A stretch of 64,000 bases of DNA, taken from NCBI GenBank assembly GCA_001789205.1, contig MFYT01000019.1, positions 1,811-65,810 on the forward strand. The letters run 5' to 3'. Each line of letters starts with the position of its first letter. Position 1 is the first letter of the stretch. Of this stretch, positions 1 to 45,642 are shown piece by piece. The position numbers and the translations under genes are program-made. Under the pieces are notes generated by a model. It was not told the origin of the DNA. It ran no database searches and saw nothing but the letters and a program-made list of their open reading frames with translations. This DNA is from Candidatus Raymondbacteria bacterium RIFOXYA2_FULL_49_16 (GTDB lineage Bacteria > Fibrobacterota > OXYB2-FULL-49-7 > XYB2-FULL-49-35).

Positions 1-1837
1 AGAGGCGCGTGTAATGGTCTCCGTCGTTTGAGATCAGATATGTTTTTCCGCTCTGGCCGTTGAATGTGACCCAGTCTGTGTCGTTCAGGGAATGGGAATG
101 TGCTTGGGCAGGCGCACCGATAATGATGGGGGTGGCCGTACCCCGGCTGTTGTCCGGTTCGTAGGCATCGGGAGCCTGTCCGCTAATGGCGAAATAGTTG
201 CTGAATCCATAGATGCTGGCATTGCTCTGGTCAACAATCCTGATCCGATAATTACTACCGGTGGCTAATCCCGCGGGTATTGACCAAGAATACGTACCAT
301 TGTTGTTAAGGTATGACGAATAGATCGTGGTCACGTATGAGGTGTCCTTGTATAGATAGAGGTATACATAGTCGCTGAACATAACGCTATCAGTGGTCCA
401 CTGGAGGTCGTAGGTTGAACTGGTTGCCCAGACTGTCATTGTATCGGGTGCCGCGAACGAGGCCAGATCAAGGGAATCGGCGTCCACGATGGATAAGGTA
501 TAGCTGCCGTAGTATCCGGAAGAATAAGGCAATATACGAATAGTGTAAATTATCGTGCTGTCACAGGTCCAGATGAGATAGGGGGTGGCATCATAGGTGC
601 CGCCGTAAAATGAATATGATGCCGAGGCGCTTGTTCCGCGGTAGAGGCTTACCCATGTCTGGAAGGTACCCTCGTTTCTGATATAGTATGTTCTTCCCTT
701 AGTGGGATAAAAGGAAACCCAGTCGGTATCCGCGTACGTCAGCGTATGGCTTTGCACCATGCCATCGGTGGAGAGCGAACTTGCCGAGGTACGGCTGTTG
801 TCGTTCTCATAGACATCGGGATCCAGGCCGCTCAGATAAAGGGTGTCGCTGAAGGCGAATAAGCCTGCATCATAGTAACTTTCAATTTTGATGCGGTATT
901 TTCCCGAGGCAAAATACGAGGGAATGGTCCATGTCTGGATATTGTCGTTGGAGGTTCCAGAAGCAATGGTATATACCTGAGAGTCTGCGCTGGTGAACAG
1001 GTAGATATTGATATATACGCCGGGTGAACCAAGCGATGTCCATTGGATCGAATCATAGACCCCTGCGGTCAGGGTGTCGCTGGAATCGGGAGAGGTTATA
1101 GCAAAAGCGCCCGAATACTGGGAACTAATGGTAAAGGCTGGGCTGGTCCCGGAAATGCCGGGATCGTAGTAGCTTTGCACCACAATGTGATAGTCGTTGC
1201 CCGATCCCTGAGGTGTTGTCACGGTCCATGAATATGATCCGGTGTTTGAGCTGTAATATGTTGATGATGAGATACGATAGAGGGAGTCCTGGCCTTTATA
1301 AAGGAATAGACGCACATAGGAACCCACGGAATCGGTGGCGGTCCACTGGATGGAAAGGGAGGAGCCAATGGTGACATTAGTTGCAACCGTGGGAGATGTT
1401 ACCGAGATGATGCCGAAATAGCGTGAGTAAATTCTAAAATTGGGACTGAAATCATATTTTGTTGTATCGTAGTAATTAGTGATTTTTATCTGGTAGAGCG
1501 AGCTTGAACTGACAGAGGGAAGATACCAAAGATACAACCCGTCATTCAATGTACCGTTGATAATGGTTGTCACAAGTGAATCATTCCGATAGAGCGAAAG
1601 CGTCACATATGTTGACGTGTCCTGCGCAACCCAGGTGAGTGTCAGGGAACTGTCGTTTCGCACAGAGGTGTAATATCGCGGATTGGAAAAGGCAGCCACT
1701 CCATTTGTCGTATTACCATGGTCTGTGGTATCAATACTATTTGGTCCGGTTGGCGAAGCGCTGTCTTTAACGCACTGGGTCAGGAACAAAGCGCAGAAAA
1801 GAGCCAGACACAAACAAAATAGGCGGAACAATTTCAT
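1..1837 (-). CDS. Large Ser/Thr/Tyr-rich lipoprotein with repeated Ig-like (Kre9/GPI-anchored-like) and PPC-like modules; 3' end runs off the window
   Basis: Not in the ORF track. Hand translation from ATG 1837 (RBS GGAGGA at 1841-1846) is open to base 2: MKLFRLFCLCLALFCALFLTQC (lipobox-like), repeats of I.W......V.L.LY....N.G.Y.W..P....Y.I.I, and two PD.YE.DNSR..A motifs followed by DTDWV.F. Confidence 0.85.
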   Translation of the reverse strand, partial: MKLFRLFCLCLALFCALFLTQCVKDSASPTGPNSIDTTDHGNTTNGVAAFSNPRYYTSVRNDSSLTLTWVAQDTSTYVTLSLYRNDSLVTTIINGTLNDGLYLWYLPSVSSSSLYQIKITNYYDTTKYDFSPNFRIYSRYFGIISVTSPTVATNVTIGSSLSIQWTATDSVGSYVRLFLYKGQDSLYRISSSTYYSSNTGSYSWTVTTPQGSGNDYHIVVQSYYDPGISGTSPAFTISSQYSGAFAITSPDSSDTLTAGVYDSIQWTSLGSPGVYINIYLFTSADSQVYTIASGTSNDNIQTWTIPSYFASGKYRIKIESYYDAGLFAFSDTLYLSGLDPDVYENDNSRTSASSLSTDGMVQSHTLTYADTDWVSFYPTKGRTYYIRNEGTFQTWVSLYRGTSASASYSFYGGTYDATPYLIWTCDSTIIYTIRILPYSSGYYGSYTLSIVDADSLDLASFAAPDTMTVWATSSTYDLQWTTDSVMFSDYVYLYLYKDTSYVTTIYSSYLNNNGTYSWSIPAGLATGSNYRIRIVDQSNASIYGFSNYFAISGQAPDAYEPDNSRGTATPIIIGAPAQAHSHSLNDTDWVTFNGQSGKTYLISNDGDHYTRL

Positions 1838-7913: not shown

Positions 7914-10900
7914 ATGAATTGCCGTATTGTTTTCTCTTTATTATCCGTTCTTTCTGCAGTACTGCTATTGCCCCTGTCTGCCTCTGCGCAGAGCTCAACA
8001 GCCCAGGTATGGGTGCGGCGCACCGTGGTGCCGTCGAGCATCAATTACGAAGGAGCGCCCGCGAACACGCAGGCGACCGTGAACTTGTGGTCGTGGGCAA
8101 GCGGCGATTCCGTGGCAGTGGGCAAACCCATTGACGTCATTTTTCTCACGGACAATGGTCCGAAGATCCAGTCGCGGCTCCCGGGCGACCCCCACAACTG
8201 GATCAGCCCGAACCGGATTGAGGGCGCCTACAACGCAAGCGTCAATTTTATCGATTCATTTTTTACGTCGAGTGAGAGGTGCGCCCTGCTGCGGTTCGCC
8301 TCAAACGTGGACACAGCGTTTTACTATACCACGAATTATCCCTATGCAAAAGGGCAGCTCGATTCCTCCCTGACCGGCGACGCGACCGAACAGGGCAATG
8401 CCATGTGGAAGGGCATCCTTGCATCGGCCCAGTACGCGGTCGCCAACCTCCGGCCGAATGTCACGCCGGTCATCATTGCCCTGACCACGGGCAACGACAG
8501 GAATTCCTATCAGCAGGGCCTGCCGCCCGGTGCCCTGGGCAACACTGAAGCGGAGGCGGTCGATTCAGTGCTTTCGTATCTTGAATCGGCCCGGGTCGCG
8601 GGTATTCCGATAAAGGTTTTTATTGTTGGCGTTGGCAGCGGCGTCAATGACAACGACGGCCTGATGACCATGATGGCAGATTCAGTCGGCGGCATGTACA
8701 TTCATACCGAAGACGGCATTGGTATTGATTCGGTGTTCCAGGACATCGGACAAAGACTGGTGGACATTGTCGGCATACGGGTTTCGCCGACCAAGCCCAT
8801 GTTCGTCGATGTGCTTGGACCGGGCATCCACTATGTGCCGGGGTCGTTTCTGCAGGTCGGCTCTCAAGGCGACCTCACGCCCGCATTCTCCGTTGACACG
8901 GTCAACGGCCTTACCCGGATAACCCTTGCGCTCGATACCATCAAACTTGGGCAGCTCTTCCTGGTTAGGTATAACATCACGGCAGCAGTCACTATTCTCG
9001 ATACCACCCATGCGGTTCTCACCCGGACCAACAATACGCAGCTCAATGACAGCGTCAATTACTCCCGCATCCAATATATGGACATCTTTGGAAGGGTCAC
9101 TGAAAAACCTATCCCTCAGAATTTTGTCCTGGTAAAAAGTGGTGTGTCGGCCATTCGGCTCTCCCTGAGTCCTGACACGCTTATACCGCCGTCATTGACC
9201 AAGGTGGTGCCTCTTGAATATACATCAACCGCTCCTGCGGTCTTTCCCGACACCACGCTCTATGCCTTGCTTGAGCTTGATATGACCGGTGAGGTTTTAT
9301 ATACGCCTGCCACTGTTACGTGGAACTTTACCCCTTTATCAGGCTGGACCGCTCCATTGCTCTATAATGTGCAGGACGACCAGCAGGGGATGGGCATTAC
9401 CGTACCTTTCGATAATGCGGGATTGTGCACATTAACCATTGAACTCACTATGCAGGGACTTATCTACCGCGACTATCTCATATTTTCAGCGTATGGTGAG
9501 GGCAGCGTGGAAAAGATTATAGGTGTTGCTATCGACGATGACACGCTAACCAGGCAATTTATCGACCCGCCGCGTCTTCTTATTGCGGGAAACAGGGCGG
9601 AATTGAACGCATATTCGCAACCGCTTTTTGCACGGGCAATTACTAATCATGGAAACATTCTGCCCCTTTCCGCATCGTGGTCTGCATCGGGTTTTTCAAT
9701 CTATCAATCGCAACTTGGGGCCGCGTTCACGGGTACGCACCAGCAGCGGACGTTCGGCATTTCCGTGGCAACAACCGAAACAGCCCAGTCCGATTCCGGT
9801 CTCATCACCATTGATTCGGGCGGCCTCTCCTTCTCGTTCACGCTGGCGATATTAGACACCTCGCATTATGATGTAGTCAATACCATAGCTATCTACGACA
9901 ATTATTATGCTGGAAACACTGATAGCATTGAGGCGCATTATTCGGGCCAGCAGTCTCAAGAGGTCTATTCTCCGGGATTGGGCGATTCCCTTACTTTCTG
10001 GCCATTGCTTTTTGACGCTAGCGGCACCCCGGTGCAATACATGGACGTGGCCACGGCGGTCTGGCAGCGCAACAACAATCCGCCCGTGACCGCCTCCTAC
10101 TATGTTGTCCGCGGCGGCGTTCCCATGCTTGAGGAACGGCTTACCGTCACTTTTGTGGGTCAGTCTGGCGATACCCTCACTGATACGGTGACCATACGCT
10201 GGGGTTATGGGAGTATCCGGCATATTTCCTTGGAAAGCAGACCGGGCCATATTGGCGATACGGTTTCGGCGCCGCTTACCGCACTGGTCATCCCGGCGAA
10301 CGCGGACACTATGCGGGGCATTTATGCCGTGGTGCGTGACGAATACGGGTATTGCGTGTACGATGGGAGCGATAACAATTTCACCGCATACGCAGCGTGG
10401 AGTGTGAGCGTGCCAGGTGTACTTACCTATATTGATATCCCGGCTGACACTACCAGTCTTGGTTGGATCCACCGGAAGGGGACCCCTGGATCCCAGACCA
10501 CCGCATATCTCGTTGCATCGGGGGTCAATCTTGTGGGGCTGTATAATCAGAAAGACAGCATTGCCTTGACACTACTCACTTATTCGTTTGATTCCCTGGT
10601 CATTCAGGCCTGCGCCTCACCCTCGCCCCTTATCGATACCACCGGGCATGTCTATGCGGTTGGCGAAGACATTCCTAAAAGCGCGCTGCTATTTCTTACC
10701 GCGGGTCAAGACACCTCGGTGGTGCGCGCAAGAATACGGCGGGACGATACCAATGCCTGGGTTTCCTGGCCGGTTTCCTGGCGTTTAACGGACATGTACT
10801 TTGTCGATGTTTCCGGCTTTCCTATTGATTCGCAGATGACCATTATTCCCATGCGTAATGTCACGCGTACCGGTATTATCGCTTACCTCGATTTTGGCGG

Positions 10901-13340
10901 GGGTATTATTGTGACAGACACGGTTTACTGTATGGTCGATATTTCATTTATCGATTCTTTTATTATGGTGTTCCCCGACTACCCGATAATCGCGGGCGAC
11001 ACCTTTTCTTTCACTATCATTGCCATAGACCAGAACGGGGACACGGTGAGGAACCCGGTGCGTCTGCCCAATGGCTATACGCTCTCCCTCAATACCCTGC
11101 TATTGCTCATGGGCGCTTCTGATACGCTGCTTTTAAACGACACCACAGCGGGCATCACAGACCCGTTCCTGAACGGTATTTCCATCAACAACGGTGTGTT
11201 GTATTTTGCCGGAGACAACCTGCTTGTCATCAGCTTCACCTATCCGACCAAGACCGGGACAGCCACTTATACCGATACTATCCGCATTTCGGTGCGGGCC
11301 GGTCCGCCCGACTCTATTGCTGTTATTCGTGAAAAGGACAGCACTCTTGCTGTGAGCGATACGCTCAGTTCGGTGCATACGGAAACATCCGATTCTGTGC
11401 TGTTTTATCAGATTGTGCTCTACGACCGTTTTGGCAATGCCATTCCCGCTTCCAGCGGTTTTTACGACAGCCTTGTGGTCACCGTGTCCGGCACGCTCGA
11501 TACAGCGGGTATTATTCGCGACGGCAATCGGATTGGTTATTCCGCGGCAAACGCTCTTGATGGCGCAAGCGGGACCATTACCGTGCGCTACACCGGGCCT
11601 TCGGCTGATATTGCCTACGCGTTCGATTTGCTGATTGTTCCTGTTGCACAGGTGCTTTTAATTGAGACGCACGAGTGGGTTCCTGACACAGTATCGGGCA
11701 TTGCTTTTATCCGCACGGTGCTCGATTCGGTTCTGGGCATTGATCCTGATTCCCTGTGGATTGCTTTACAGGCCAGAGGGTCTTCGCAGAACCAGGTATA
11801 TCTTGCTGCTTTGCAGGCCAATGGATACATGCCCTTCAGAGACGGGTATCTCGACTATTTGGATATTACCCTGAGCATGCCTTTTGCGTTTAAGAATACA
11901 TATATCAGCGCAATCAGATTCGACGCGCAAACCTATGATGGTCCTGACAGCGTAGTATGGCGGGTCTCTGATTTGGGCCGCACCATTCGCCTTCTTCCGC
12001 GCGGACCGGGCAATACACTCTGGCGGCTGTGGCTTATTACCAACGCGGGCCAAAGCGTGCATGCTCCTTTTGAGACAGGCTTGCTGCCTTCGGTCTCATT
12101 CGACAACAATGCCATACGGCAGGCGAACAGTCATACTAATTTTCCAGTACTCATCGGCACTGATGGTGATATCTATTCCACGGACATGGCGATTACCGTT
12201 GATTCAACACCGCCGGTCATTGCTGGGTTCAGATTCCAGAACAACGCCTGCAAGATCGGGGAGCCTGAGAACAGGATTTTCATATCTTTCAGCGAACCTG
12301 TTGCCACTGGTGCTATCTCGATTTTTTCCTCTATTACCGCGTTTACCATCGATTACCGGACGCGGACTGACAGCGGGTTCATGAGCACCGCGATTTTAGA
12401 GGCCAGCCCTTCGGGCAGGGTATACGACACGCTTGAAGCGTGGAGCTATGATGGCGACGCTGCATACACCATGACGTATGAAGCGGTTGTTAACAAGGAC
12501 TCAAACGCGGTCTTTATTCCGGGCATGACCAAGATCCGTTTTTCGGTCAAACCGGTCAATACCCAGTTTGCCGATGCCACGGGAAACCGCGGGTGTGTGT
12601 CCGCGAACCGGAAAGCGGTCCTTGTTTCTGACGGGCAGACAGACGCATATGTCTGTTCGCTTATCGGTACAACGATTATCTCGCGGTACGATGCCATGAC
12701 CTTTGCGTGGGGCGGCAGTACCGAGGGAGGCACGCCACAGGCTGTTCCGCTTTTCCATTTCTTCGGGTTTACGGTCAACATGCTGCAGATTGTTGCGGAC
12801 AACCCGCGTACCTTTGTAATCATTGATGACGCGGTAATCAGCGGTAGGCACTTTGTGGTGTGCGATTTTGACACTACCACACCGCTTATCGAGACCATGG
12901 TCAAGATCTACGATGTGTACGGTAACCTTGTGGCCTCGCCTGCCACAAACGCCGCCCTGAGCGCCTCGTTCACCGTGGGTTCTCTGCGCGAGTTTATGGG
13001 CTTTGGCGCCATTGAGAACGATCTGGCTACCCTTACCATAAGCGATATCGAGAAGTCCTATTCGATAACCGAGGCTGTTTCGCCTTCAGATCCTGACACT
13101 TTACGGCCCATATATCCCACAACCCTTTCGCTGGGCTACGATTATCTTTCAGGGCGCTGCGGTCCAAGCACAGGGCGTGATTTGTGCATGCCTGCGTGGA
13201 ACTGTTTAAACGCCAAGGGCAGGCTTGTGGCTCCTGGCGGATATGTGGGAGCGCAGGACATCAGGACCGGCCGTATTGTAACCGAGGCAGTCAAAAAGAT
13301 CCTGGTTACCAGCGGCTCTACCCGCAAATCAAGCTACTAA
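7914..13340 (+). CDS. Giant secreted/surface protein: N-terminal VWA domain, Ig-like repeats, FlgD/T9SS-like C-terminal sorting domain
   Basis: Probable start ATG 7914 (MNCRIVFSLL... signal peptide ASA|Q); VWA-like IDVIFLTD, ALLRFA, VIIALT.G, IKVFIVGVG; C-terminal VKIYDVYGNLV...WNCLNAKGRLVAPGGY. Confidence 0.85.
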   Translation: MNCRIVFSLLSVLSAVLLLPLSASAQSSTAQVWVRRTVVPSSINYEGAPANTQATVNLWSWASGDSVAVGKPIDVIFLTDNGPKIQSRLPGDPHNWISPNRIEGAYNASVNFIDSFFTSSERCALLRFASNVDTAFYYTTNYPYAKGQLDSSLTGDATEQGNAMWKGILASAQYAVANLRPNVTPVIIALTTGNDRNSYQQGLPPGALGNTEAEAVDSVLSYLESARVAGIPIKVFIVGVGSGVNDNDGLMTMMADSVGGMYIHTEDGIGIDSVFQDIGQRLVDIVGIRVSPTKPMFVDVLGPGIHYVPGSFLQVGSQGDLTPAFSVDTVNGLTRITLALDTIKLGQLFLVRYNITAAVTILDTTHAVLTRTNNTQLNDSVNYSRIQYMDIFGRVTEKPIPQNFVLVKSGVSAIRLSLSPDTLIPPSLTKVVPLEYTSTAPAVFPDTTLYALLELDMTGEVLYTPATVTWNFTPLSGWTAPLLYNVQDDQQGMGITVPFDNAGLCTLTIELTMQGLIYRDYLIFSAYGEGSVEKIIGVAIDDDTLTRQFIDPPRLLIAGNRAELNAYSQPLFARAITNHGNILPLSASWSASGFSIYQSQLGAAFTGTHQQRTFGISVATTETAQSDSGLITIDSGGLSFSFTLAILDTSHYDVVNTIAIYDNYYAGNTDSIEAHYSGQQSQEVYSPGLGDSLTFWPLLFDASGTPVQYMDVATAVWQRNNNPPVTASYYVVRGGVPMLEERLTVTFVGQSGDTLTDTVTIRWGYGSIRHISLESRPGHIGDTVSAPLTALVIPANADTMRGIYAVVRDEYGYCVYDGSDNNFTAYAAWSVSVPGVLTYIDIPADTTSLGWIHRKGTPGSQTTAYLVASGVNLVGLYNQKDSIALTLLTYSFDSLVIQACASPSPLIDTTGHVYAVGEDIPKSALLFLTAGQDTSVVRARIRRDDTNAWVSWPVSWRLTDMYFVDVSGFPIDSQMTIIPMRNVTRTGIIAYLDFGGGIIVTDTVYCMVDISFIDSFIMVFPDYPIIAGDTFSFTIIAIDQNGDTVRNPVRLPNGYTLSLNTLLLLMGASDTLLLNDTTAGITDPFLNGISINNGVLYFAGDNLLVISFTYPTKTGTATYTDTIRISVRAGPPDSIAVIREKDSTLAVSDTLSSVHTETSDSVLFYQIVLYDRFGNAIPASSGFYDSLVVTVSGTLDTAGIIRDGNRIGYSAANALDGASGTITVRYTGPSADIAYAFDLLIVPVAQVLLIETHEWVPDTVSGIAFIRTVLDSVLGIDPDSLWIALQARGSSQNQVYLAALQANGYMPFRDGYLDYLDITLSMPFAFKNTYISAIRFDAQTYDGPDSVVWRVSDLGRTIRLLPRGPGNTLWRLWLITNAGQSVHAPFETGLLPSVSFDNNAIRQANSHTNFPVLIGTDGDIYSTDMAITVDSTPPVIAGFRFQNNACKIGEPENRIFISFSEPVATGAISIFSSITAFTIDYRTRTDSGFMSTAILEASPSGRVYDTLEAWSYDGDAAYTMTYEAVVNKDSNAVFIPGMTKIRFSVKPVNTQFADATGNRGCVSANRKAVLVSDGQTDAYVCSLIGTTIISRYDAMTFAWGGSTEGGTPQAVPLFHFFGFTVNMLQIVADNPRTFVIIDDAVISGRHFVVCDFDTTTPLIETMVKIYDVYGNLVASPATNAALSASFTVGSLREFMGFGAIENDLATLTISDIEKSYSITEAVSPSDPDTLRPIYPTTLSLGYDYLSGRCGPSTGRDLCMPAWNCLNAKGRLVAPGGYVGAQDIRTGRIVTEAVKKILVTSGSTRKSSY

Positions 13341-18267: not shown

Positions 18268-18615
18268 ATGGATATTACCACTTATTCCGTCGGCGGATAC
18301 GCCGTCATACTTATTAGCGAATCAGTCCGCAAGTACGAGGATGTTGTTTTTATCAAAAAAAAGATCAATGAGATTGTGGACAATGGCCAGATGTTTATCG
18401 CCATCAACCTTTCCAAAGTCGATTATATGCACAGCTTTTTCATCAAGATACTCACGTCCAGCTACAAGAAGCTGGTGAAAAGCGGCGGTGATATTGTGCT
18501 CATCGGGCCCAATGAATTCATCAGGAACCTCATCAATCTTCTCAATATCCATAAATACATCACTGTCTTCGAGAACGACGAAAGCTTCAGGGAATTCGTC
18601 AAGACCCATACCTAG
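18268..18615 (+). CDS. STAS domain protein (anti-anti-sigma-like)
   Basis: IAINLSKVDYMHS, GGDIVLIGPN..IRNLI.LL, typical STAS size. Confidence 0.85.
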   Translation: MDITTYSVGGYAVILISESVRKYEDVVFIKKKINEIVDNGQMFIAINLSKVDYMHSFFIKILTSSYKKLVKSGGDIVLIGPNEFIRNLINLLNIHKYITVFENDESFREFVKTHT

Positions 18616-18636
18616 GCGCCCGGCATATTTTCCATG

Positions 18637-19311
18637 TCAATTCCACGACCCTAGCGCTTTTTCACGCGAGGGGTAGATGGTCACAAAAGGCGATGAAATA
18701 TGTTTTTCGCACGCCTGGAGGGTCGCGGCGTCGGAACAGAAGATGCGTACGCGTCCCTTTGACTGTTCAACGATTTTCTGGAGGCGCTTCACGATAGGTT
18801 CAGTGATTGTGCATGCGGATACAAACCTGCTGATATCTATGAGGGTTTTGAATTCGTCGTTGAGAATGGTGTCGAGTGTGGTGATGTAGGTTTCGCAGTC
18901 TGTGTTTTCAGCTGGAAAGTCGCTGAATTTGAACACGCCCACGTTCTGAAAAAGGTCAAAATCCAGCTTAAGTGAAAGGGTCTCTTTTTTTTGACGCTCG
19001 GGCTGCTTATACGGTATCGAGGGCGCGTGCACTGTGAAGAAATTGACCAGACTGGTAGTTTCAAGCACCTTCAGATTGTCTTCGGACACATTATCGAGAA
19101 TTATGGCCCTGCCGTTTTCTTCGGCCATGTTGTGCAACTTAATGAGCGCGCCAATGGTCATACTATTCAGGAGAATAAGGTCCGCAAGATCTATCCGCAT
19201 GTTGCCGCTTTTCGATGAAGTCAGAAACTGAACGCCCATTTCGATTAATTCATTAGAATTGTAAAAGGTTATTTCCGCGGGCAGTTTGTAACTGAATTCG
19301 TTATCTGGCAT
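18637..19311 (-). CDS. Tandem STAS domain protein
   Basis: IDLADLILLNSMTIGALI...ETTSL (STAS1) plus a second degenerate STAS (LIDISRF...GRVRIFC...IYPSREKAL). Confidence 0.75.
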   Translation of the reverse strand: MPDNEFSYKLPAEITFYNSNELIEMGVQFLTSSKSGNMRIDLADLILLNSMTIGALIKLHNMAEENGRAIILDNVSEDNLKVLETTSLVNFFTVHAPSIPYKQPERQKKETLSLKLDFDLFQNVGVFKFSDFPAENTDCETYITTLDTILNDEFKTLIDISRFVSACTITEPIVKRLQKIVEQSKGRVRIFCSDAATLQACEKHISSPFVTIYPSREKALGSWN

Positions 19312-19535
19312 GGAGTTATCCTTTATTAAACAGATTATTAATTTAGTTAATACCCGTGTTTTATGTCAAAATATTTGCAGATGTGACAGGTTTTGTCATA
19401 TCTGGGTGTTATATTTTTAGTGCGATCTTCGAAACGATGAGCGCAAGAACAAACAAGTTCTTTGATATTCCAGTCCGGTCCGTCCCATAAGCAAAACAAT
19501 TGTATTACGTATATACCAAACTTAGGAGTTTTATT

Positions 19536-19811
19536 ATGAAGACGAACATCGAACTTACCGCCATTAAAGTGTATCCTTTCAAACAAGCAAAGGGAAAGAT
19601 CAAAGGGTTTGTGCAGGTTGTGCTGAACAACGCGCTCAAGCTCAACGGTCTTAAAATCGTGGAAGGGGAAAACGGCCTCTTCCTGAGTTATCCGTCTGAA
19701 AAGGGAAAGGATGGCAACTACTACAGCATCTACAATCCCATAACACGGGAGAGCAGAACCGAGATCCAGGACGCTGTCCTGGCGAATTACGAGGCAGCGG
19801 TTTCGGCCTAA
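19536..19811 (+). CDS. spoVG: SpoVG family nucleic-acid-binding protein
   Basis: IKGFVQVVLN..L..GLKIVEGENGLFLSYPS.K.KDG.Y..I..PIT.E.R..IQDAVL..Y; RBS AGGAG, start ATG 19536. Confidence 0.92.
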   Translation: MKTNIELTAIKVYPFKQAKGKIKGFVQVVLNNALKLNGLKIVEGENGLFLSYPSEKGKDGNYYSIYNPITRESRTEIQDAVLANYEAAVSA

Positions 19812-19913
19812 AAGCGCACGCTTTTATCGGAAACCAGTGAAAAGCGGGACGGGCCGGGTTGGAACCAAAGAACCAATGAAAAAACCATATGTAACGACCA
19901 AGGAGACGATATC

Positions 19914-20204
19914 ATGGAAAACGCAGTACTCGATATTACCGAACTCAGGATTTATCCAACAAAAAAAGAATCCGCTGTCAGGGCATTCTGCACAGCCACC
20001 TTCAACCACGCGCTATGCGTATCAGGCATCAGGATCAAGGAGGGAAAAAAGGGCGTCTATGTCGCCTTTCCCCTTTCCACAGGCGCAAATGGCAAACGGC
20101 ATCCGATTGTGTTTCCCGTGACCGGCGAAGCCAGGCGCGAGATTTCCAACAGGATTTTGGCCACGTACGTCATCAACCACTGTGTTGATGATTATACGCT
20201 GTGA
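19914..20204 (+). CDS. spoVG: Second, divergent SpoVG family protein
   Basis: ITELRIYP, RAFC..TFN..L.V.GIRI.EG.KG.YVAFP, IVFPVT.EAR..I...IL..Y; RBS AAGGAG. Confidence 0.85.
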   Translation: MENAVLDITELRIYPTKKESAVRAFCTATFNHALCVSGIRIKEGKKGVYVAFPLSTGANGKRHPIVFPVTGEARREISNRILATYVINHCVDDYTL

Positions 20205-20234
20205 AATATATCTTATACCTTAGGAGGGCATGCC

Positions 20235-20597
20235 ATGTCAAACCTGAGGATTGTCGAACATAAGACCGGGCCAGCGGGTAATCTGATTGTCCTGCGAATA
20301 GAGGGGAGCATTGATCAGGCAAACATCGACCAGCTTCAAAAAACCATTGCACGGGTGGTGGCCGGGGGGTGCGCCAGGATCATCGCCAACTGTGAAAAGC
20401 TCTCCTTTATCTCCAGCTCGGGCATTGGGGTCTTTATCGACCTGAAGGAGGTTTTGGGAGAGAAAAATGGCGAACTGGCCTTTGCCGCGGTCACGTCCAA
20501 ATTCCTGAACATCTTTCATAAGGTCGGCGTGGACGAGCTCTTTACCATGTTTCCCGGAGAAAAAGAGGCCCTCAGCCATTTTAACCAGGGCGCTTAG
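20235..20597 (+). CDS. Anti-sigma factor antagonist (RsbV/SpoIIAA-like STAS)
   Basis: VLRIEGSID, IIANCEKLSFISSSGIGVF (phosphoacceptor Ser region), F..E.EAL. Confidence 0.9.
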   Translation: MSNLRIVEHKTGPAGNLIVLRIEGSIDQANIDQLQKTIARVVAGGCARIIANCEKLSFISSSGIGVFIDLKEVLGEKNGELAFAAVTSKFLNIFHKVGVDELFTMFPGEKEALSHFNQGA

Positions 20598-20603
20598 CGT
20601 TTC

Positions 20604-21002
20604 ATGAAGCGGTCATTTCCCTATTCACTCGAATCCCTTGCGGCGGTGCGTCAGCTTGCCGCTGATTTCTGCTCCAACAGCGCCATCAACGAATTGGTGT
20701 GCGGTGAAATGGAGCTTGCGCTCAACGAGGCATGCACCCATATCATCAGCCACCGCGGCAGCAGCACCCAGCCGGACGAAACCTTCCACGTGACTCTTGC
20801 CACTGTGGGCGCCATGCTGGTCGCGTCTGTATCATTTCCCGGCAAACGATACAATTTTATGCAACCAACCAATACGGCGCGCGCCAAAGGACCGGCCATG
20901 AGTCTCTTTGCCGCCTATGTGACCCGGAAAATGGTGGATATGGTCATGTATAATTATCTTCCCGGCAATATTAACGAGCTCCGGCTCATCAAGAACCTGT
21001 AA
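20604..21002 (+). CDS. RsbW-like HATPase_c anti-sigma factor, degenerate ATP site
   Basis: ESLAAVRQ...ELALNEACTHII.H...MVD.V.Y.Y..G..NELRLIK fold; N-box and G-box residues substituted. Confidence 0.78.
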   Translation: MKRSFPYSLESLAAVRQLAADFCSNSAINELVCGEMELALNEACTHIISHRGSSTQPDETFHVTLATVGAMLVASVSFPGKRYNFMQPTNTARAKGPAMSLFAAYVTRKMVDMVMYNYLPGNINELRLIKNL

Positions 21003-21011
21003 GGAGCGCGC

Positions 21012-22505
21012 GTGCCTGTTACTGAAAAAAAACAGCTCGAAAGCCTGTTGCAGGCAAGCGCGGCGCTCCATTCATCCATAGATCTGCCTGAACTTTTACG
21101 TAAAATGATCGACCTCATTTCCGGGGTTCTCGAATGTTCTGGCAGTTCCATCTATGTTTTTGACCAGGCAAAGGGCGAACTAGTGCTTGAGGCTGATACC
21201 GCGGGCAAGGACCTCAATCTCAAGATCGAGGCTGGACCCCGGGTATACGCCGCAGGCGTAGGCGTGCCGGTCCATGTGCGCGATTCCCGGACCGACAAGC
21301 GGTGGGAGGCGTTGGCCCAGGGCGATGAAGGACCGCAGAGCGTGCTCTGTGTTCCCATGCAGTTCAACGGCCAGTCCGTAGGGGTCATTGAGGCCACGGA
21401 TAAAAAGGATGGCGGGCAGTTCGACTACGATGATCTGCAGCTCTTCCAGGGTTTCGCTAATATCTGCGGGGCGGCCATTATAAATGCGCGGCGTTTTTCC
21501 GCGGTCTCGTCCGAAAACAGGAAGCTCAAGGAGACACTCGCGGGCAGCGTGGTCAACCTGATCGGCAATTCAACGGCCGTGCAGAAAATAACCAGTGTTA
21601 TCAAAAAAGTGGCGCATGTCGATTCCATTGTGCTCATTACCGGCGAGAGCGGCACGGGCAAGGAGATCATTGCCCGGAGCATCCATGCGCTTTCGGACCG
21701 CAAAGACAAGCCCTTTATTCCGGTCAACTGCGGTGCTGTGCCAGAGAACCTCCTTGAGAGCGAGCTCTTTGGCCACGAAAAAGGCGCTTTTACAGGCGCA
21801 GACCGCCAGCGCGCGGGCATTTTCGAGGAGGCCGAGGGCGGCACAGTGTTTCTCGACGAGATCGGCGAGACCTCGCTCACTACCCAGGTGAAGCTGCTCA
21901 GGGTGCTCCAGGAGGGCGCCTTCAAACGCGTGGGCTCTAACCGGGAAATAAAGTCGAATGTGCGTGTCATCTCAGCCACCAACCGGAAGCTTGAAGAGCT
22001 GGTCGCTGAAAAAAAATTCAGGGAAGACCTCTATTACCGGATCAATGTTGTGGCCATTCCTGTGCCACCCCTGCGCGAGCGCATGGACGATCTGCCGGTG
22101 CTGGCCGGGTATTTTTTAAAGAAATCGTGCGAAAAGCTCAAAAAGAACAGTGCGGGCATTTCACCAGCGGTCATGCGCCTCTTTTTTTCCTATGAATGGA
22201 AGGGAAACGTGCGCGAATTGGAAAATACCATTGAATCCGCGGTTGCCATGAGTGAAGGTTCCTTCCTTGAACCCGGCGACCTTCCCGTCCGCTTTTCAAG
22301 CGCACTGAGCTCTGCGCCTGGATTCATGTCGCTTGCCCATCTCACGTACGACGAGGCAAAGGACGAGTTTGAAAAGCAGTATTTTTCAGGCCTGCTCCAG
22401 CTCCACAATGGCGATGTGCACAAGGCCGCTGAACAGTCGAAGGTGAGTGAGAAATCGATTGTACGCAGACGCCAGAGATTTGATATTTCCAAGAACAAAG
22501 AGTGA
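21012..22505 (+). CDS. GAF-domain sigma54-dependent transcriptional activator (bEBP, Fis-type HTH)
   Basis: GAF (SVLCVPM..GVIEA..K..F...DL); Walker A GESGTGKE, ESELFGHEKGAFTGA, Walker B VFLDE, FREDLYYR, W.GNVRELEN. Confidence 0.95.
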   Translation: MPVTEKKQLESLLQASAALHSSIDLPELLRKMIDLISGVLECSGSSIYVFDQAKGELVLEADTAGKDLNLKIEAGPRVYAAGVGVPVHVRDSRTDKRWEALAQGDEGPQSVLCVPMQFNGQSVGVIEATDKKDGGQFDYDDLQLFQGFANICGAAIINARRFSAVSSENRKLKETLAGSVVNLIGNSTAVQKITSVIKKVAHVDSIVLITGESGTGKEIIARSIHALSDRKDKPFIPVNCGAVPENLLESELFGHEKGAFTGADRQRAGIFEEAEGGTVFLDEIGETSLTTQVKLLRVLQEGAFKRVGSNREIKSNVRVISATNRKLEELVAEKKFREDLYYRINVVAIPVPPLRERMDDLPVLAGYFLKKSCEKLKKNSAGISPAVMRLFFSYEWKGNVRELENTIESAVAMSEGSFLEPGDLPVRFSSALSSAPGFMSLAHLTYDEAKDEFEKQYFSGLLQLHNGDVHKAAEQSKVSEKSIVRRRQRFDISKNKE

Positions 22506-22563: not shown

Positions 22564-25053
22564 TTATTTCATCAGATAGAGTTTGCCGATCGCCGTTGTT
22601 GCGTCCGCAGCATACCGCACCAGATAGATACCCGATGCAACGGCTCTTCCCTGCGCGTCTTTTCCATTCCACATCGCACGGTACGCGCCCGCGCTGGCCA
22701 ATGTCTTTGCCAGCGTTGTGATATGCCTGCCGTGCAGGTCAAAGATCGCTATTTCAATGTTCTGTTTTTTCTCCACTTCATACGCAATGGTCACCATGGG
22801 GTTAAAGGGGTTGGGCGAGAGCGAGGTAATGGCCGTGGTCATGGCGCGTGCGGGTGTTGGCGACCGTTTTTCAATGGCAATTACGCTGTTCTCCAGTTCA
22901 TTGAACTTTGCCAGTAATAGGGACGATCCGATGTCCGGGGTCGCTGTTGAGGCCGGGTTTTTCGGCGCAAGTGTAATGGCAAAAAGGCCAGCGGACCCGT
23001 CAATAGGTTCTGTGCCTGCAAAGGCCATGCGAATGGACGTGTTCCGGGTGTTATAGGCGCAGGTAAAGCCAATGAGCGCGGCAAGAGGCTCCACAGAGAC
23101 CAGATTGTATTGGGCCGCGTCAAACGCCATTGTCAGTTCACCGGAATAGACCCCCGCCATGTTTTCAGCCGCAATAGAGGTCGTAAAAACATTCTGCAGG
23201 TCAATGGCGGTCTCCGTGGTACGGGAGAAGGAATCGAGCACAACCTTGGCAACCGATCCGGCAAAGCGTTTTGACGGCGCAGGGTCATTGCTGTTTTGCC
23301 GGTTACCGCTTACATCGCCGATCAGAAGCGCCTGTATCTGCACATTGTGGATGGGCGCGGTCAGGGACTGGATGATGGTTGTTTCCGGGGTAACTATCCA
23401 ACGGCCCAGCAGCGTATTGTCGTCAACGCCCACCAAGTACCTGAGTACCAGGGCAGCGTCAAAGGCGGTGATCATTTTATTGCCATTGACGTCAGCGGCC
23501 GTGGTTTGTCCGGCAAAGTCATTCAGGGTCTTGAGCCCCACCAGAGACCTGAGAATGAGCGAAGCGTCATAGGCTGATATGCCATTTGCTATATCACCAG
23601 AGTCCTTGGCGGCAATGAGCCTGAAGGGATCGGTCACTGTCCGGGGGAGGCTGGGGAAAACAAAGGAGCCAGCATTGTCCGAAATGGCCTTTGCAAGCGT
23701 ATCGCCATTGGAGCGCAGCACAACCAGGCGCGCATTATCCACGCCTTTGCCGTTTGCCTTGTAGGTCACAGTACCGTCCACGCTGTAGTCAGGACTGGGT
23801 GCGCATTCCATGGAAATGGTCCCGGCCTTTGTTCCGGCAACAGGATCACCGTCGTTGAATACCGCCTTGGTAATCCTGAATACGATGTCTTTGCCGCATG
23901 CGCTTCCAGGAATGACTGTGCGGATGGTGAAAAGCGGCCCTGTGCCTTCGAGCGGCTGCGTCTGGGCAAAGGCGATCTTGATGGATCCGGACGTGAGATT
24001 TTTCGCAATGGTAGCGCTGGCAATGATCGATCCGGCGGTATCGATGCCGATCACCGTTGCTTCGCTTGCGGTATACGTCAGTTCAATGTTGCCAGAAACA
24101 ATCGCATAGCCGTCGGTAGGGGTCACGCTGACCGGATAGTCGAGTGTGTCATTGGCCGAGACATTCGTATCGTTCGTGAATACGACAAGGTCAGTAACCG
24201 TGATCTGCCAGGCCTGACGCGCATAGGCGCCGTATCTGTCATACGCGTCAGCCACAACTGTATGCGTCCCAATGTCGAGGAATTTTGGATACCAGGTAAT
24301 AAGCCCGGTAAGCGAATCAATCTGCATGTTCAGGGGTTTTGTTGGCAAACGGTATTTAATAGTGTCATTGTCAGCATCTGTTGCAGTGATACGGTATTCA
24401 TATTTGAGTCCCGCAATGGCTTCTTTTATAGGCGCAGAGGAAATCTGCGGGGCATGGTTGTTGGACCCTGTTCTCGGATAGAGCGCGGTAATGCCAAGGC
24501 TGTCGTCAGTCGCAAGATGGCGGTGCGACGTGTCGCCTTTTGACGCATAGGCATACATGACCGCTTTGGTCACGCTGGTGTGGCCAAGACCAAGCGCATG
24601 GCCTATTTCATGCGTGGCAATGTGGCCCACGTCCATTTTTCCGGATTCCGCGCTGGTCGACCACTGGAAATCACGGCCGTTGAAGATAATATCAAAATCA
24701 GAAAGGGCTGAGCTGCTATACCAGTAATAGCACACGGCAATCACGTTGCCGTCAAAGGGAAAACCGCTGCCTTCTTCCCATTTGAGTATATTTGCTTTGT
24801 CGGGCGCCACGCTCTTGGAAGCTGTTGTTCCCACGTATTGCGTGCGGATGGCTGTTCCGGGCGCTTCGCTCCAAACCGAAAAACCCCGGTGAATCGCGTC
24901 GAATTCATTGGTCACATCAGGCGTGCCTTCTTCGTTTATGCAGTATTTCACCTCAGGGTTTGTTCCCTGCCATTTGGGGCCAAGGAACACATAGGAAAAG
25001 CACCAGGTGCACAAGAAAAGAACTGAAAGAATCAGAGTATGAATGGTTTTCAT
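22564..25053 (-). CDS. Matrixin (M10) metalloprotease with He_PIG Ig, cohesin, dockerin, cohesin-like and FlgD/T9SS-like C-terminal domains
   Basis: HEIGHALGLGH plus AVMY Met-turn; NHAPQI..DAD.D....W.P Ig; IKIAFA..GTGPLF cohesin; ISAYDASLILR / ADVNGNKMITAFDAALVLRY dockerin; PNPFNP...IFDLHGR...WNGKD..G..VASGIY. Confidence 0.9.
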   Translation of the reverse strand: MKTIHTLILSVLFLCTWCFSYVFLGPKWQGTNPEVKYCINEEGTPDVTNEFDAIHRGFSVWSEAPGTAIRTQYVGTTASKSVAPDKANILKWEEGSGFPFDGNVIAVCYYWYSSSALSDFDIIFNGRDFQWSTSAESGKMDVGHIATHEIGHALGLGHTSVTKAVMYAYASKGDTSHRHLATDDSLGITALYPRTGSNNHAPQISSAPIKEAIAGLKYEYRITATDADNDTIKYRLPTKPLNMQIDSLTGLITWYPKFLDIGTHTVVADAYDRYGAYARQAWQITVTDLVVFTNDTNVSANDTLDYPVSVTPTDGYAIVSGNIELTYTASEATVIGIDTAGSIIASATIAKNLTSGSIKIAFAQTQPLEGTGPLFTIRTVIPGSACGKDIVFRITKAVFNDGDPVAGTKAGTISMECAPSPDYSVDGTVTYKANGKGVDNARLVVLRSNGDTLAKAISDNAGSFVFPSLPRTVTDPFRLIAAKDSGDIANGISAYDASLILRSLVGLKTLNDFAGQTTAADVNGNKMITAFDAALVLRYLVGVDDNTLLGRWIVTPETTIIQSLTAPIHNVQIQALLIGDVSGNRQNSNDPAPSKRFAGSVAKVVLDSFSRTTETAIDLQNVFTTSIAAENMAGVYSGELTMAFDAAQYNLVSVEPLAALIGFTCAYNTRNTSIRMAFAGTEPIDGSAGLFAITLAPKNPASTATPDIGSSLLLAKFNELENSVIAIEKRSPTPARAMTTAITSLSPNPFNPMVTIAYEVEKKQNIEIAIFDLHGRHITTLAKTLASAGAYRAMWNGKDAQGRAVASGIYLVRYAADATTAIGKLYLMK

Positions 25054-26699: not shown

Positions 26700-27674
26700 C
26701 TATTGTTTGTACCTGGAAAAATCACCGAATACCCGCACTCCCAGCGTATCATCCACGGTCATCGCGGCTTCCACAAGACCTGCCAATTCATTTCTGATGA
26801 ATATCGCTGTTGAAAAGGCGTCGGCCCGTATTGGGTCTTTGCATATGACCGTGGCGCTGATTGTTCCCTGTGCAGGGTATCCTGTGGCAATGTCAAAAAT
26901 GTGGTGATAGCGGGTTTTTCCATCAAGAAAGAAACGTTCATAGTCGCCTGATGTGACAATGGAGGTGTTGGAGAGGCGCACTGTTGCTATGACCGAATCC
27001 TGGTTGCGGGGATGGCGGATGCCAATGACCCACTCTTCGTTGCCGGGTTTCGGGTCTCCGCAGACAATGTCGCCGCCCGCATTGATCATGAATGAAGAGA
27101 TCCCTTGCGCCTTGGCGATTTCCGCCATTTTTTTCAGGGCATATCCTTTGGCAATGCCTCCAAGATCAATACGTATGGCCGTATCGGCGAAAAAGAGGGT
27201 GTCTTTGCGTACTGATACATTGCGAAAATTGACATGCGTAAGCGCTTGGTTAATCAAGGGATCAGCAGGGCGGGCAGGAGTAAGGTCAGCGCCAAAGCCC
27301 CAGAGCCATTTTACCGGTCCAATGGTACAGTCAAATATTCCTTTTGTTTCAGAGCCGATGTCCAGGGCTTGCTGCACGAGCGCAACGACTTCAGGGAGCG
27401 TCTGGATCCACTGTTTGTTTGTCCGGTGGTTTATCTGCCAGACCGCGCTTCCTGCAACGTGTGCGCCAAAGAGCTGTTCAATTCGCTTTGCCTCCTGGGC
27501 AAGCGCGTCCATGGCATGGTTTGCCGCCTTTGTCGAGGGTGCGTAAAGAACAACCTCCACCATGGTATCCATGGCGAAAAAGTGCTGTTTGTGCCGTTTT
27601 AGACCCTGAGAACAGGAAAAAAGGAGAAGACCGAGACAGAAGATCATGGTCCAACGTCCGGCAAGGAGGCGCAT
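26700..27674 (-). CDS. apbE: FAD:protein FMN transferase (ApbE) lipoprotein
   Basis: Lipobox LFSC; AMDT, FDCTIGP..LWGF, DLGGIAKGYA, NAGGD, TSGDYERF...RYHHI.D..TG.P, ADAFSTA. Confidence 0.93.
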   Translation of the reverse strand: MRLLAGRWTMIFCLGLLLFSCSQGLKRHKQHFFAMDTMVEVVLYAPSTKAANHAMDALAQEAKRIEQLFGAHVAGSAVWQINHRTNKQWIQTLPEVVALVQQALDIGSETKGIFDCTIGPVKWLWGFGADLTPARPADPLINQALTHVNFRNVSVRKDTLFFADTAIRIDLGGIAKGYALKKMAEIAKAQGISSFMINAGGDIVCGDPKPGNEEWVIGIRHPRNQDSVIATVRLSNTSIVTSGDYERFFLDGKTRYHHIFDIATGYPAQGTISATVICKDPIRADAFSTAIFIRNELAGLVEAAMTVDDTLGVRVFGDFSRYKQ

Positions 27675-27739: not shown

Positions 27740-28831
27740 GTGAAAAGCCCTGTCTTTGACCTCTACGACCGCCAGGCCATGGCCAAAGCCCTCGATCTTG
27801 CTCGTTCGGTAAAAGGGGCGACCGGGGACAATCCTGCCGTGGGAGCGGTTGTGTATAAAAAAGGCGCTATTCTGGGCATGGGCCGCACCCATATGCCCGG
27901 CCAGGATCATGCTGAAGCTGAAGCGCTCTGGCGTGCTGGAAAGAGCGCGCGTGGAGCAAGCCTTGCGGTTACCCTTGAACCCTGCTGCATCCATGGCCGC
28001 ACTTCGCCCTGCACACATGCCATTATTGCCTCTGGCATCAAACGGGTTGTTGCAGCGCTCAAAGACCCCAACCCCCTTATTCATGGCCGGGGCTTGCTCG
28101 CCCTTGCACGCGCGGGTGTTCGCATCGAATGCGGCTTAGGTGAAAGCGAAGCAATGGTGATAAACGAGGATTTTTTCAAATATATTACCACAGGAATCCC
28201 CTTTGTCGTTGTCAAGGCCGGCCTTACGTTAAACGGGCTCATTGCGGCTGATTCTCGCCATTCACGCTGGATCACTTCTGAAGAGGCCCGGCAACTGGTG
28301 CACGAGTTGCGTGCGCGTACCAACGCCGTGCTTGTAGGGCTTTCCACGGTTTTAGAGGACAATCCCAAGCTCACAGTACGGCATGTGGAAGGCCGCAACC
28401 CAATCCGTGTGGTGCTCTCGCATGGGCCGGACATTCCTAAAACATCGTATCTGGCTAAAACCGCCTCTGACATACGAACCATAGTTGTTACCCCGCGCGC
28501 ATTGCGCACGCGTTGTTCCAACGCTATTCAATACATAGATCTTGGCGCGCGCACGTCACGGCTTCCCATTCGCCAGGTTTTGCGCAGGCTTGGCGTTGCG
28601 GGCATCAAGAGCGTTCTGGTCGAGGGCGGCAGTGAAATATACACATCGTTCCTTGAACAGCGATGCATTGACATGTTCCAGCTTTTTTTTGCACCCCGGG
28701 TGCTGTCAAGCGGCATTCCCTTTGTTCACGGGCAGCGGACCCTTTCTGTACGTGAATCCCTGAATCTAAGGGATGTGACAATCAGGCAGCTTCAAAACGG
28801 GTTTATGGTAACCGCACGGCCGGAGAGATAA
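27740..28831 (+). CDS. ribD: Bifunctional riboflavin deaminase/reductase RibD
   Basis: NPAVGAV, HAE, TLEPC..GRT.PC, DPNP, SRWIT, DNPKLTVR, VLVEGG. Confidence 0.96.
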   Translation: MKSPVFDLYDRQAMAKALDLARSVKGATGDNPAVGAVVYKKGAILGMGRTHMPGQDHAEAEALWRAGKSARGASLAVTLEPCCIHGRTSPCTHAIIASGIKRVVAALKDPNPLIHGRGLLALARAGVRIECGLGESEAMVINEDFFKYITTGIPFVVVKAGLTLNGLIAADSRHSRWITSEEARQLVHELRARTNAVLVGLSTVLEDNPKLTVRHVEGRNPIRVVLSHGPDIPKTSYLAKTASDIRTIVVTPRALRTRCSNAIQYIDLGARTSRLPIRQVLRRLGVAGIKSVLVEGGSEIYTSFLEQRCIDMFQLFFAPRVLSSGIPFVHGQRTLSVRESLNLRDVTIRQLQNGFMVTARPER

Positions 28832-28833
28832 GC

Positions 28834-30659: not shown

Positions 30660-30668
30660 GGAGGAGCT

Positions 30669-34562: not shown

Positions 34563-34614
34563 CCTCACCCTGTCAGCCTTTTCAGGCTGACATCCCTTTC
34601 CTAAGAGGAGAGGG
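34563..34614. repeat. REP-like double-hairpin intergenic element
   Basis: CCTCACCC + TGTCAGCCT/AGGCTGACA hairpin + CCCTTTCCT/AGGAGAGGG hairpin. Confidence 0.5.
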
Positions 34615-34637
34615 AAAACAAAGGGATTCCATATTGT

Positions 34638-41572: not shown

Positions 41573-41590
41573 GGATACCCGCTGGTGGAT

Positions 41591-42793: not shown

Positions 42794-42849
42794 GGGTTCT
42801 TATAAAATAGTAATAGTACGGATAAAAGACAAGATTCATAACAATATTT

Positions 42850-44857: not shown

Positions 44858-44861
44858 AACC

Positions 44862-45635: not shown

Positions 45636-45642
45636 TATTACT

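Follow-up and report, generated by a model that had tools for sequence, protein, structure and literature searches.

A stretch of 64,000 nucleotides from Candidatus Raymondbacteria bacterium RIFOXYA2_FULL_49_16 (positions 1,811 to 65,810 of the forward strand of contig MFYT01000019.1, assembly GCA_001789205.1; hereafter the window) encodes a giant exported protein, at 7914..13340, in which the tripeptide D-[ST]-[AILVMT] is strikingly abundant. This tripeptide is the acceptor sequence, or sequon, of the general O-glycosylation system of the Bacteroidota, which was reportedly described by Coyne et al. in 2013. Here we quantify the motif in the proteins of the window and across the genome, compare it with the Bacteroidota sequon and with samples of other genomes, and consider a candidate for the enzyme that would recognise it. 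Coordinates of the features discussed are collected in Table 1.

Translation of the gene gives 1808 residues with exactly 41 copies of the motif, in agreement with the first-pass annotation of the window, which had counted about 41 in some 1800 residues and whose quoted examples can all be located (GDTLTDTV at residues 753/757, PDSIA at 1133, KDSTL at 1142, SDTLS at 1149 and SDSVL at 1160). The composition of the protein itself predicts 10.05 copies, and none of 5000 shuffled versions reached 41 (mean 10.07, standard deviation 2.97). The only Pfam domain detected is a von Willebrand factor A (VWA) domain, and there are no matches in NCBIfam. Paralogues encoded on three other contigs of the same genome maintain observed-to-expected ratios (O/E) of 3.4–4.0, whilst members of the family were found only in this genome and four relatives of the same order (5 of the 21 genomes searched). 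In two paralogues, with 35% and 38% identity to the giant protein, 16 and 19 of the 41 sites fall at shared positions where about one would be expected if the sites were independent, and the aspartates of the motif are better conserved (0.46–0.61) than other aspartates (0.33–0.41). The sites thus behave as selected features. The last 115 residues (12993..13340) recur at 90% identity at the end of a separate 135-residue open reading frame (ORF) on another contig (C42:50662-51006). The paralogues end in less similar versions of this segment, which may represent a shared C-terminal module.

Each of the other window proteins was shuffled 2000 times with its composition kept. The cytoplasmic comparator LepA, said in the first-pass annotation to hold about three motifs, has exactly three, an excess that is not significant (356 of 2000 shuffles reach three). 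The same annotation had described the motif as frequent in three further proteins and in the periplasmic loop of a fourth. This stands for the partial protein at the start of the window, whose 13 motifs were reached by no shuffle, and for the periplasmic flavin transferase ApbE, whose five were reached by 6 of 2000, but not individually for the matrixin (six reached by 457) or for the methyl-accepting chemotaxis protein (MCP) taken whole, where three motifs are found against 1.90 expected and 612 shuffles do as well. Two of the three MCP motifs lie inside the periplasmic loop of ~120 residues. Five other exported or outer-membrane proteins of the window (a TonB-dependent receptor, a YfiR-like and a Wza-like protein, and two small lipoproteins) have no motif or one each.

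Motif frequency and residue rules across the genome

The assembly (5.43 Mb in 112 contigs) yielded 4138 genes with our own hexamer-trained ORF caller. Proteins were classed by a home-made heuristic, blind to the motif, that draws on N-terminal signal-peptide and lipobox features and on hydrophobic segments, giving 984 exported (860 plus 124 lipoprotein-like), 1040 membrane, 952 ambiguous and 1162 cytoplasmic proteins, and expected counts were derived from the composition of each protein. On this basis the exported proteins carry 3577 motifs where 1518 are expected (O/E 2.36), rising to an O/E of 2.84 in the lipoprotein-like subset, whilst the membrane, ambiguous and cytoplasmic classes give 1.85, 1.25 and 1.21, respectively. 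In 100 shuffles of the whole set the exported total averaged 1521.6 ± 40.1 and never exceeded 1610 (z 51). The cytoplasmic total of 815 compares with 673.7 ± 25.0 in 100 shuffles, or 718 with 626.0 once 30 probably misclassified proteins bearing a type IX secretion system (T9SS) tail motif are set aside. The comparison that the first-pass annotation had proposed, of secreted with cytoplasmic proteins under composition-preserving shuffles, is therefore strongly positive (2.36 versus 1.16–1.21). Under a conservative, dipeptide-preserving null the values are 1.45 for exported and 1.18 for cytoplasmic proteins.

The excess is broadly spread. Observed counts exceed expected ones in 72% of the 966 exported proteins of at least 80 residues and are more than double in 48%; at least one site is present in 81% of exported but 44% of cytoplasmic proteins, and the exported O/E lies between 2.2 and 2.9 in all length classes. 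Three other sources of the signal were considered and rejected. A cause at the level of DNA or of general composition is at odds with cytoplasmic proteins that lie near expectation and with the agreement between the per-protein composition null and the shuffles. An artefact of domain families or repeats is contradicted by an O/E of 2.34 (796/340) for the 372 exported proteins that lack a paralogue at E<1e-5, against 2.36 for the 612 that have one, and by the O/E of 1.52 that persists when the 200 largest contributors are removed. Finally, an effect of T9SS tails is discounted by near-identical values in exported proteins with the tail motif (2.33, 246 proteins) and without it (2.37, 738 proteins). 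In 13 sensor proteins with two membrane helices, the periplasmic loops show the excess (17/7.7 = 2.20) and the cytoplasmic tails little of it (14/12.4 = 1.13).

The excess is specific to the motif. In exported proteins, control motifs lie close to or below expectation (E[ST][AILVMT] 0.88, N[ST][AILVMT] 0.99, the reversed motif 1.01, D[AG]x 0.93 and G[ST]x 1.12), as do D[ST] followed by any other residue (0.90) and D[ST][DEKP] (0.55); N-glycosylation sequons are likewise flat (N-x-S/T 1.05, [DE]-x-N-x-[ST] 0.83). Aspartate is thus needed before the serine or threonine, the glutamate and asparagine variants showing no enrichment. D-S-x exceeds D-T-x (2.64 versus 2.05), and all six of A, I, L, V, M and T are enriched in the third position (1.4–3.95). 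After D-S, the order is L 3.95, I 2.57, V 2.52, T 2.19, A 2.12 and M 2.02, followed more weakly by C 1.57, S 1.51 and F 1.30, with P, D, E and K at ~0.5. Put differently, the probability of one of the six residues is 0.616 after D-[ST] and 0.396 after any other residue plus S/T.

These rules can be set beside those of the Bacteroidota, for which we cite excerpts of a 2025 review throughout (PMC12871550). In the glycoproteomes described there, Asp is nearly obligatory, Glu is not tolerated, Ser is slightly preferred and the third position is occupied, in falling order, by L, I, V, T, A, S and M, and rarely by G, F or C. The aspartate requirement, the preference for serine and the third-position ranking found here all agree with this, in support of the first-pass annotation, which had equated the motif with the Bacteroidota sequon. 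Location agrees too: sites in the Bacteroidota lie on non-cytoplasmic proteins, and here the enrichment is likewise on exported ones. A large share of exported proteins has at least one site in both cases, 81% here and about half in the Bacteroidota (PMC12871550, in excerpt).

When all 8000 tripeptides are ranked by excess (z) in exported proteins, the list is led by PNP, NPF, PFN and FNP (O/E about 6), which make up the PNPFNP signature of T9SS-type C-terminal domains, and the remainder of the top 13 consists of DSL, DTL, PDS, DSV, WDA, DSI, DTV, DSA and DST. An NPFN or PNPF motif is present in the last 110 residues of 354 called proteins which, together with the tripeptide excess, points to a very large set of T9SS-type cargo.

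Host lineage and other genomes

In a tree of LepA, named sequences from Fibrobacter, Chitinispirillum, Chitinivibrionales and 'Fibrobacteres' form the sister group (99/99) of this genome and two relatives of the same order, which lie apart from the Bacteroidota, Ignavibacteriota, Chlorobiota, Gemmatimonadota and others. The tree is of a single gene and has some long branches elsewhere; the best LepA matches among named genomes have 65–66% identity. The host phylum therefore differs from that of the known system, and the earlier suggestion of an organism of the Fibrobacterota–Chlorobiota–Bacteroidota (FCB) group outside the Bacteroidota is borne out, the tree placing it with the Fibrobacterota.

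The same pipeline was applied to samples of 54–357 kb from 18 other genomes, one sample each, in which related genomes are not independent. Four Fibrobacterota relatives gave exported O/E values of 1.86 (G001), 2.21 (G009), 3.01 (G007) and 1.84 (G012), or 463/195 = 2.38 when pooled, with the same third-position profile. The same third-position preference accompanies an excess in a metagenome-assembled genome (MAG) labelled 'Gemmatimonadetes' (G031; 85/32 = 2.65) and in the unclassified MAG RSWS12 (G037; 48/25 = 1.93). Three Bacteroidota MAGs from outside the class Bacteroidia gave an intermediate value when pooled (166/100 = 1.66). Samples from Longimicrobiales (0.76), Latescibacteria (0.97), Myxococcales (0.63), Acidobacteriaceae (0.90) and Nitrospiraceae (0.69) show no excess (84/110 = 0.76 pooled), whilst those from Flavobacteriales, Melioribacter and Chlorobium were too small to read, with 4–12 exported proteins each. 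The excess is therefore specific to certain lineages and not a general trait of exported proteins.

A sequon system in Fibrobacterota is an idea already suggested in the 2025 review, one sentence of which remarks, from computation, that Fibrobacterota show similar enrichment (its Fig. 2A), and the Gemmatimonadota signal may already be in that figure or in the supplement (PMC12871550, in excerpt). Full-text literature searches for Fibrobacter with O-glycosylation returned nothing else relevant. Since the core idea is already in the review, the value of the present analysis lies in quantification, controls and an enzyme candidate: it adds a signal that exceeds the one in a Bacteroidia sample (2.4-fold over-representation here, chance level, 0.88, there), the presence of this signal in one Gemmatimonadota sample as well, and an enzyme candidate that can be tested.

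Candidate enzymes and neighbouring genes

The Bacteroidota system attaches an O-glycan with a mannose-rhamnose-glucuronic acid core to serine or threonine; the system considered here is predicted from sequence. The transferase, core flippase and ligase of the Bacteroidota system 'remain undiscovered' according to the review, which gives mannose as the reducing-end sugar and recommends a search for homologues of eukaryotic O-mannosylation (PMC12871550, in excerpt). One candidate for an initiating enzyme of this kind is encoded in the window, namely the TMEM260-like protein, a membrane glycosyltransferase of the GT-C type.

Table 1 Features of the window, with positions counted from its first nucleotide
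Feature	Position	Strand	Remarks
Exported protein, partial	2..1837	-	C-terminal 612 aa of a larger protein; Kre9/KNH-like Ig, Big_7; 13 sequons vs 4.31 expected
MCP periplasmic loop	2807..3166	+	aa 30-149; sequons DTV 109, DTL 115; membrane segments aa 10-29, 150-169
Giant exported protein	7914..13340	+	1808 aa; 41 D-[ST]-[AILVMT] sequons; O/E 4.08
Sec signal peptide (predicted)	7914..7988	+	~25 aa, ending ...LSASA; from translation and heuristic; cleavage site inferred
von Willebrand factor A domain	8205..8714	+	aa 98-267; PF00092, 27.1 bits (cut-off 23.8)
Matrixin with T9SS C-terminal sorting domain	22564..25053	-	6 sequons vs 4.06 expected
ApbE family periplasmic flavin transferase	26700..27674	-	PF02424, 254 bits; 5 sequons vs 0.97 expected
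TMEM260-like GT-C membrane protein	31563..34562	+	999 aa, multi-pass; PF11028 and C-terminal TPR; putative initiating enzyme
Glycosyltransferase family 2 (GT2) protein	34638..35390	+	250 aa; PF00535, 82 bits; directly downstream of TMEM260-like gene
Surface-polysaccharide cluster	36434..52522	.	Pfam: GT2/GT4 genes, GT9, Wzy_C, Wzz, Wzx and Wza types
Wzy_C protein	40199..41572		PF04932, 49.9 bits
Wzz-like protein	41591..42793		in 36434..52522 cluster
Wzx-like protein	45643..47181		in Wzz/Wzy_C/Wza cluster
Wza-like protein	47763..49319		in 36434..52522 cluster
LepA	56062..57867	-	cytoplasmic comparator and phylogeny marker; 3 sequons vs ~1.45-1.47 expected
GT2 with GtrA/DPMS-type membrane domain	57916..59022	-	second GT2/membrane-protein pair
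Multi-pass membrane protein	59019..60668	-	549 aa; overlaps end of 57916..59022 gene by 4 bases

The protein matches PF11028 over profile positions 1–177 of 179 (137.4 bits, cut-off 24.2), with TPR_8 and TPR_12 at residues 921–985 and matches to TPR proteins of known structure in the PDB over residues 871–951. Against the solved chain of human TMEM260 (9rql) the match has an E-value of 2.2e-16, and D36, H51 and D611 align with D52, H67 and D441 of TMEM260, of which the first two lie on the donor side and the third is the catalytic base (bioRxiv 10.64898/2026.03.17.711096, in part). Two motifs, FWDxGE...HPPG and GDNDTFPLW, do not vary among the nine bacterial homologues aligned (six from Fibrobacterota and one each from Bacteroidia, Chlorobium and Gemmatimonadetes). 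The bacterial protein thus has the PF11028 family, the key residues and the C-terminal TPR in common with the human enzyme (PDB 9rql/9rqm/9rqn; PMC10214176, in excerpt), which reads its sequon on an extended, unfolded peptide and takes mannose from dolichyl-phosphate-mannose (bioRxiv 10.64898/2026.03.17.711096, in part). Reading a sequon in an unfolded peptide and using a lipid-phosphate-mannose donor is the kind of mechanism that a periplasmic D-S/T-x mannosyltransferase would need. The likeness has its limits, in that the TMEM260 sequon is a long signature of IPT domains (P..P..GP..GG..T/S), unlike D-S/T-x, the TMEM260 mannose is not extended and the bacterial protein is ~270 residues longer. 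We know of no activity for bacterial members of the family, and a literature search that paired TMEM260, DUF2723 or GT117 with 'Bacteroid' turned up no publication linking them.

PF11028 is present in all 21 genomes of a Fibrobacterota set that includes the present one, in 151 of 151 evenly drawn Bacteroidota genomes and in 24 of 30 named genomes, the latter including every member of the FCB group except a 1.8-Mb Rikenellaceae MAG. It was likewise detected in a genome of Moduliflexus and, weakly, in one of the Myxococcales, and was not found in two Acidobacteria, one Paenibacillus, one Bacillota and one Nitrospiraceae among the named genomes searched; Bacteroides thetaiotaomicron alone of 14 control genomes has it.

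The gene order ribD-ribE-ribBA-ribH-nusB-TMEM260-like (window 27740..35390, + strand) is common to relatives in several Fibrobacterota families, as judged from four TMEM260 neighbourhoods and four further stretches. A riboflavin operon with nusB is an odd housekeeping context for a glycosyltransferase. The GT2 protein encoded directly downstream of the TMEM260-like gene resembles polyprenyl-phosphate sugar synthases, its best partial matches in NCBIfam, all below cut-off, being to PgfS, ArnC-type and dolichyl-phosphate hexose transferase models. In three relatives (G001, G003 and G008) the TMEM260-like gene is followed directly by a gene of the YfhO family (39–73 bits, over cut-off), in G003 with an orthologue of this GT2 gene after it, whilst the TMEM260-like gene of G009 has three GT2 genes behind it. 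In the present genome the YfhO-like genes are elsewhere and not beside the TMEM260-like gene, one on contig C12 (37.3 bits, over cut-off) and one on contig C15 (26.8 bits, under cut-off). The latter is directly followed (C15:10919-14244) by a gene for RmlD (dTDP-4-dehydrorhamnose reductase; PF04321, 198.7 bits), and the core glycan of the Bacteroidota has rhamnose as its second sugar (PMC12871550, in excerpt).

YfhO is itself of interest, a July 2026 preprint having predicted that it is the O-oligosaccharyltransferase of the Bacteroidota (bioRxiv 10.64898/2026.07.27.740950, in part). The family (PF09586) has matches in 21 of 21 genomes of the Fibrobacterota set, own genome included (15 over cut-off), in 143 of the 151 Bacteroidota genomes at E≤1e-3 (111 over cut-off), in 21 of 29 named genomes and, at E≤0.001, in three of the 14 controls; a Longimicrobiales genome gave no match. 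The eight Bacteroidota genomes without a match all have a TMEM260-like protein. The same preprint notes that Porphyromonas gingivalis and some Alistipes lack YfhO (bioRxiv 10.64898/2026.07.27.740950, in part), and P. gingivalis glycosylates the motif (PMC8729774, in excerpt). The presence of PF11028 or PF09586 was also considered as a predictor of enrichment and rejected, both families occurring in genomes without enrichment.

Two further loci of the window may bear on glycan assembly. The GT2 gene with a GtrA/DPMS-type membrane domain and the adjoining gene for a 549-residue membrane protein, which has no match in Pfam, NCBIfam or the PDB, possibly encode another transferase pair for lipid-linked sugars. 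The large surface-polysaccharide cluster is a possible source of an outer glycan. Its wzx-like gene lies amongst Wzz, Wzy_C and Wza types; the LFG-type locus of the Bacteroidota comprises metG, wzx and conserved terminal glycosyltransferases. The Wzy_C protein, which has no NCBIfam match, invites comparison with the PglL/PilO-type (Wzy_C) enzymes of Neisseria, Burkholderia and Acinetobacter, which glycosylate many periplasmic proteins en bloc. To our knowledge, PglL enzymes do not use a D-S/T-x sequon, and the Bacteroidota motif is described as the only known exception, with a defined sequon, in bacterial O-glycosylation (PMC12871550, in excerpt). As the gene sits in a Wzz/Wzx/Wza cluster, its product is more simply taken for a Wzy polymerase or an O-antigen ligase.

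Elsewhere in the window, a run of small regulatory genes (18268..22505 on the + strand, with 18637..19311 on the - strand) was seen as ORFs and N-terminal sequences only. It includes two tandem ORFs that we take to be SpoVG-like (19536..19811 and 19914..20204) and, presumably, a STAS-type antagonist, a small kinase-like protein and a 497-residue GAF/phosphatase-like protein.

Interpretation of the excess

We consider it likely, from the statistics and residue rules set out above, that D-[ST]-[AILVMT] tripeptides are the acceptor sites of a general, sequon-directed periplasmic O-glycosylation system like that of the Bacteroidota, and that selection in this Fibrobacterota lineage has raised the number of such sites and maintained them on most exported proteins, with the giant VWA protein as an extreme case. 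The enrichment, the match of residues and the LepA tree all favour the proposal of the first-pass annotation that the same system operates in this organism, and such a system in the Fibrobacterota would probably be homologous to that of the Bacteroidota.

Several observations weigh against glycosylation as the explanation. The case for modification is one of sequence statistics. Cytoplasmic proteins also lie slightly above expectation (z 3.5–5.6), several exported proteins of the window have no site at all, and both the gene calls and the export classes come from home-made heuristics. A crude positive-inside topology for 480 membrane proteins gives 1.93 outside and 1.54 inside, and the cleaner test, that with two-helix sensors, comprises 13 proteins only; both point in the expected direction, with modest support. 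Cultured members of the class Bacteroidia glycosylate the motif. A rumen Bacteroidia MAG (G021) nonetheless has no excess in its 93 exported proteins (113/129 = 0.88, or 0.96 under a species-level null), a value hard to square with the enrichment described for almost every Bacteroidota family (PMC12871550, in excerpt). Having the system and being enriched in its motif can therefore come apart, and the latter does not prove the former. Enrichment is better read as 'system plus selection for many sites', its absence saying nothing; as a presence/absence test for the system it was rejected, the Bacteroidia genome having been meant as the positive control.

Of the other explanations, the one that survives best, although we regard it as unlikely, is that the motif does mark sites of modification, but for a system that has no relation to the Bacteroidota one, whether through a convergent sequon, another sugar linkage, phosphorylation or acylation. 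The Bacteroidota transferase is undiscovered, so that homology of the machinery cannot be checked, and the window offers other candidates in the Wzy_C protein and in the GT2 paired with the 549-residue membrane protein. Convergence would, however, have to account for a sequon identical down to the minor third-position residues in two phyla that both belong to the FCB group in the LepA tree and are described as sister phyla (PMC12871550, in excerpt). Both of the proposed GT-C families are common to the two phyla, and the intermediate O/E of the Bacteroidota from outside Bacteroidia fits a single inherited system.

Less probable still is that the motif is kept for a reason other than glycosylation, such as beta-rich extracellular structure (Asx/ST turns or calcium sites) or recognition by a chaperone or protease. 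The small cytoplasmic excess would suit this explanation, as would the preference for V, I, Y and W at positions +3 to +5 after the aspartate, as in beta strands, and modification is itself deduced from statistics. Against it, the exported proteins of five other genomes and of the Bacteroidia sample show no excess, so that exported or beta-rich proteins in general do not have this property; the residue rules are those of a sequon established by experiment, and the excess does not depend on paralogues or on size class. An artefact of gene calling, export classification or null model is very improbable: the caller and the rules are home-made, some glycosyltransferases being classed as 'secreted' and the giant protein as 'membrane', but the classification is blind to the motif and its errors would dilute the contrast rather than create it, the result for the single giant protein is independent of classification, the analytic expectation equals the shuffle means and the same pipeline yields about 0.6–1.0 on seven other samples.

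If the sites are glycosylated, as we believe, a route can be sketched. The TMEM260-like enzyme would add the first hexose to unfolded chains emerging from Sec, using a lipid-linked hexose donor made by a GT2 such as that encoded at 34638..35390; a YfhO-type GT-C and/or a ligase would extend the glycan, and the outer glycan may derive from a Wzx-dependent cluster such as that at 36434..52522. We put this sequence of steps forward tentatively, and think it rather doubtful as a whole. That TMEM260-like (DUF2723/PF11028) proteins are the initiating periplasmic O-mannosyltransferases, inherited across much of the FCB group, with YfhO acting at the next step, is possible but again short of likely. 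The sole published prediction names YfhO and not the TMEM260-like protein (bioRxiv 10.64898/2026.07.27.740950, in part), and although the YfhO family is present here and adjacent to the TMEM260-like gene in relatives, the two are apart in this genome. Moreover, these GT-C families occur where enrichment does not, in the Latescibacteria (both families), the Longimicrobiales (TMEM260-like only), the Myxococcales and the Bacteroidia sample, and their acceptors could be others.

Bacterial O-glycosylation has no defined motif other than the Bacteroidota sequon, whose transferase is undiscovered after 15 years (PMC12871550, in excerpt). A much stronger signal in a second phylum would make the system older than the split between Bacteroidota and Fibrobacterota, and would allow comparative genomics to narrow down the machinery. 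If the proposal is true, the system predates that split and reaches at least some Gemmatimonadota, the dense loading with sequons, at 2–3 times chance, being a lineage-specific elaboration. The secreted enzymes and giant surface proteins of the fibre-degrading Fibrobacterota would then be heavily glycosylated, which would bear on their stability, their heterologous expression and their proteomics.

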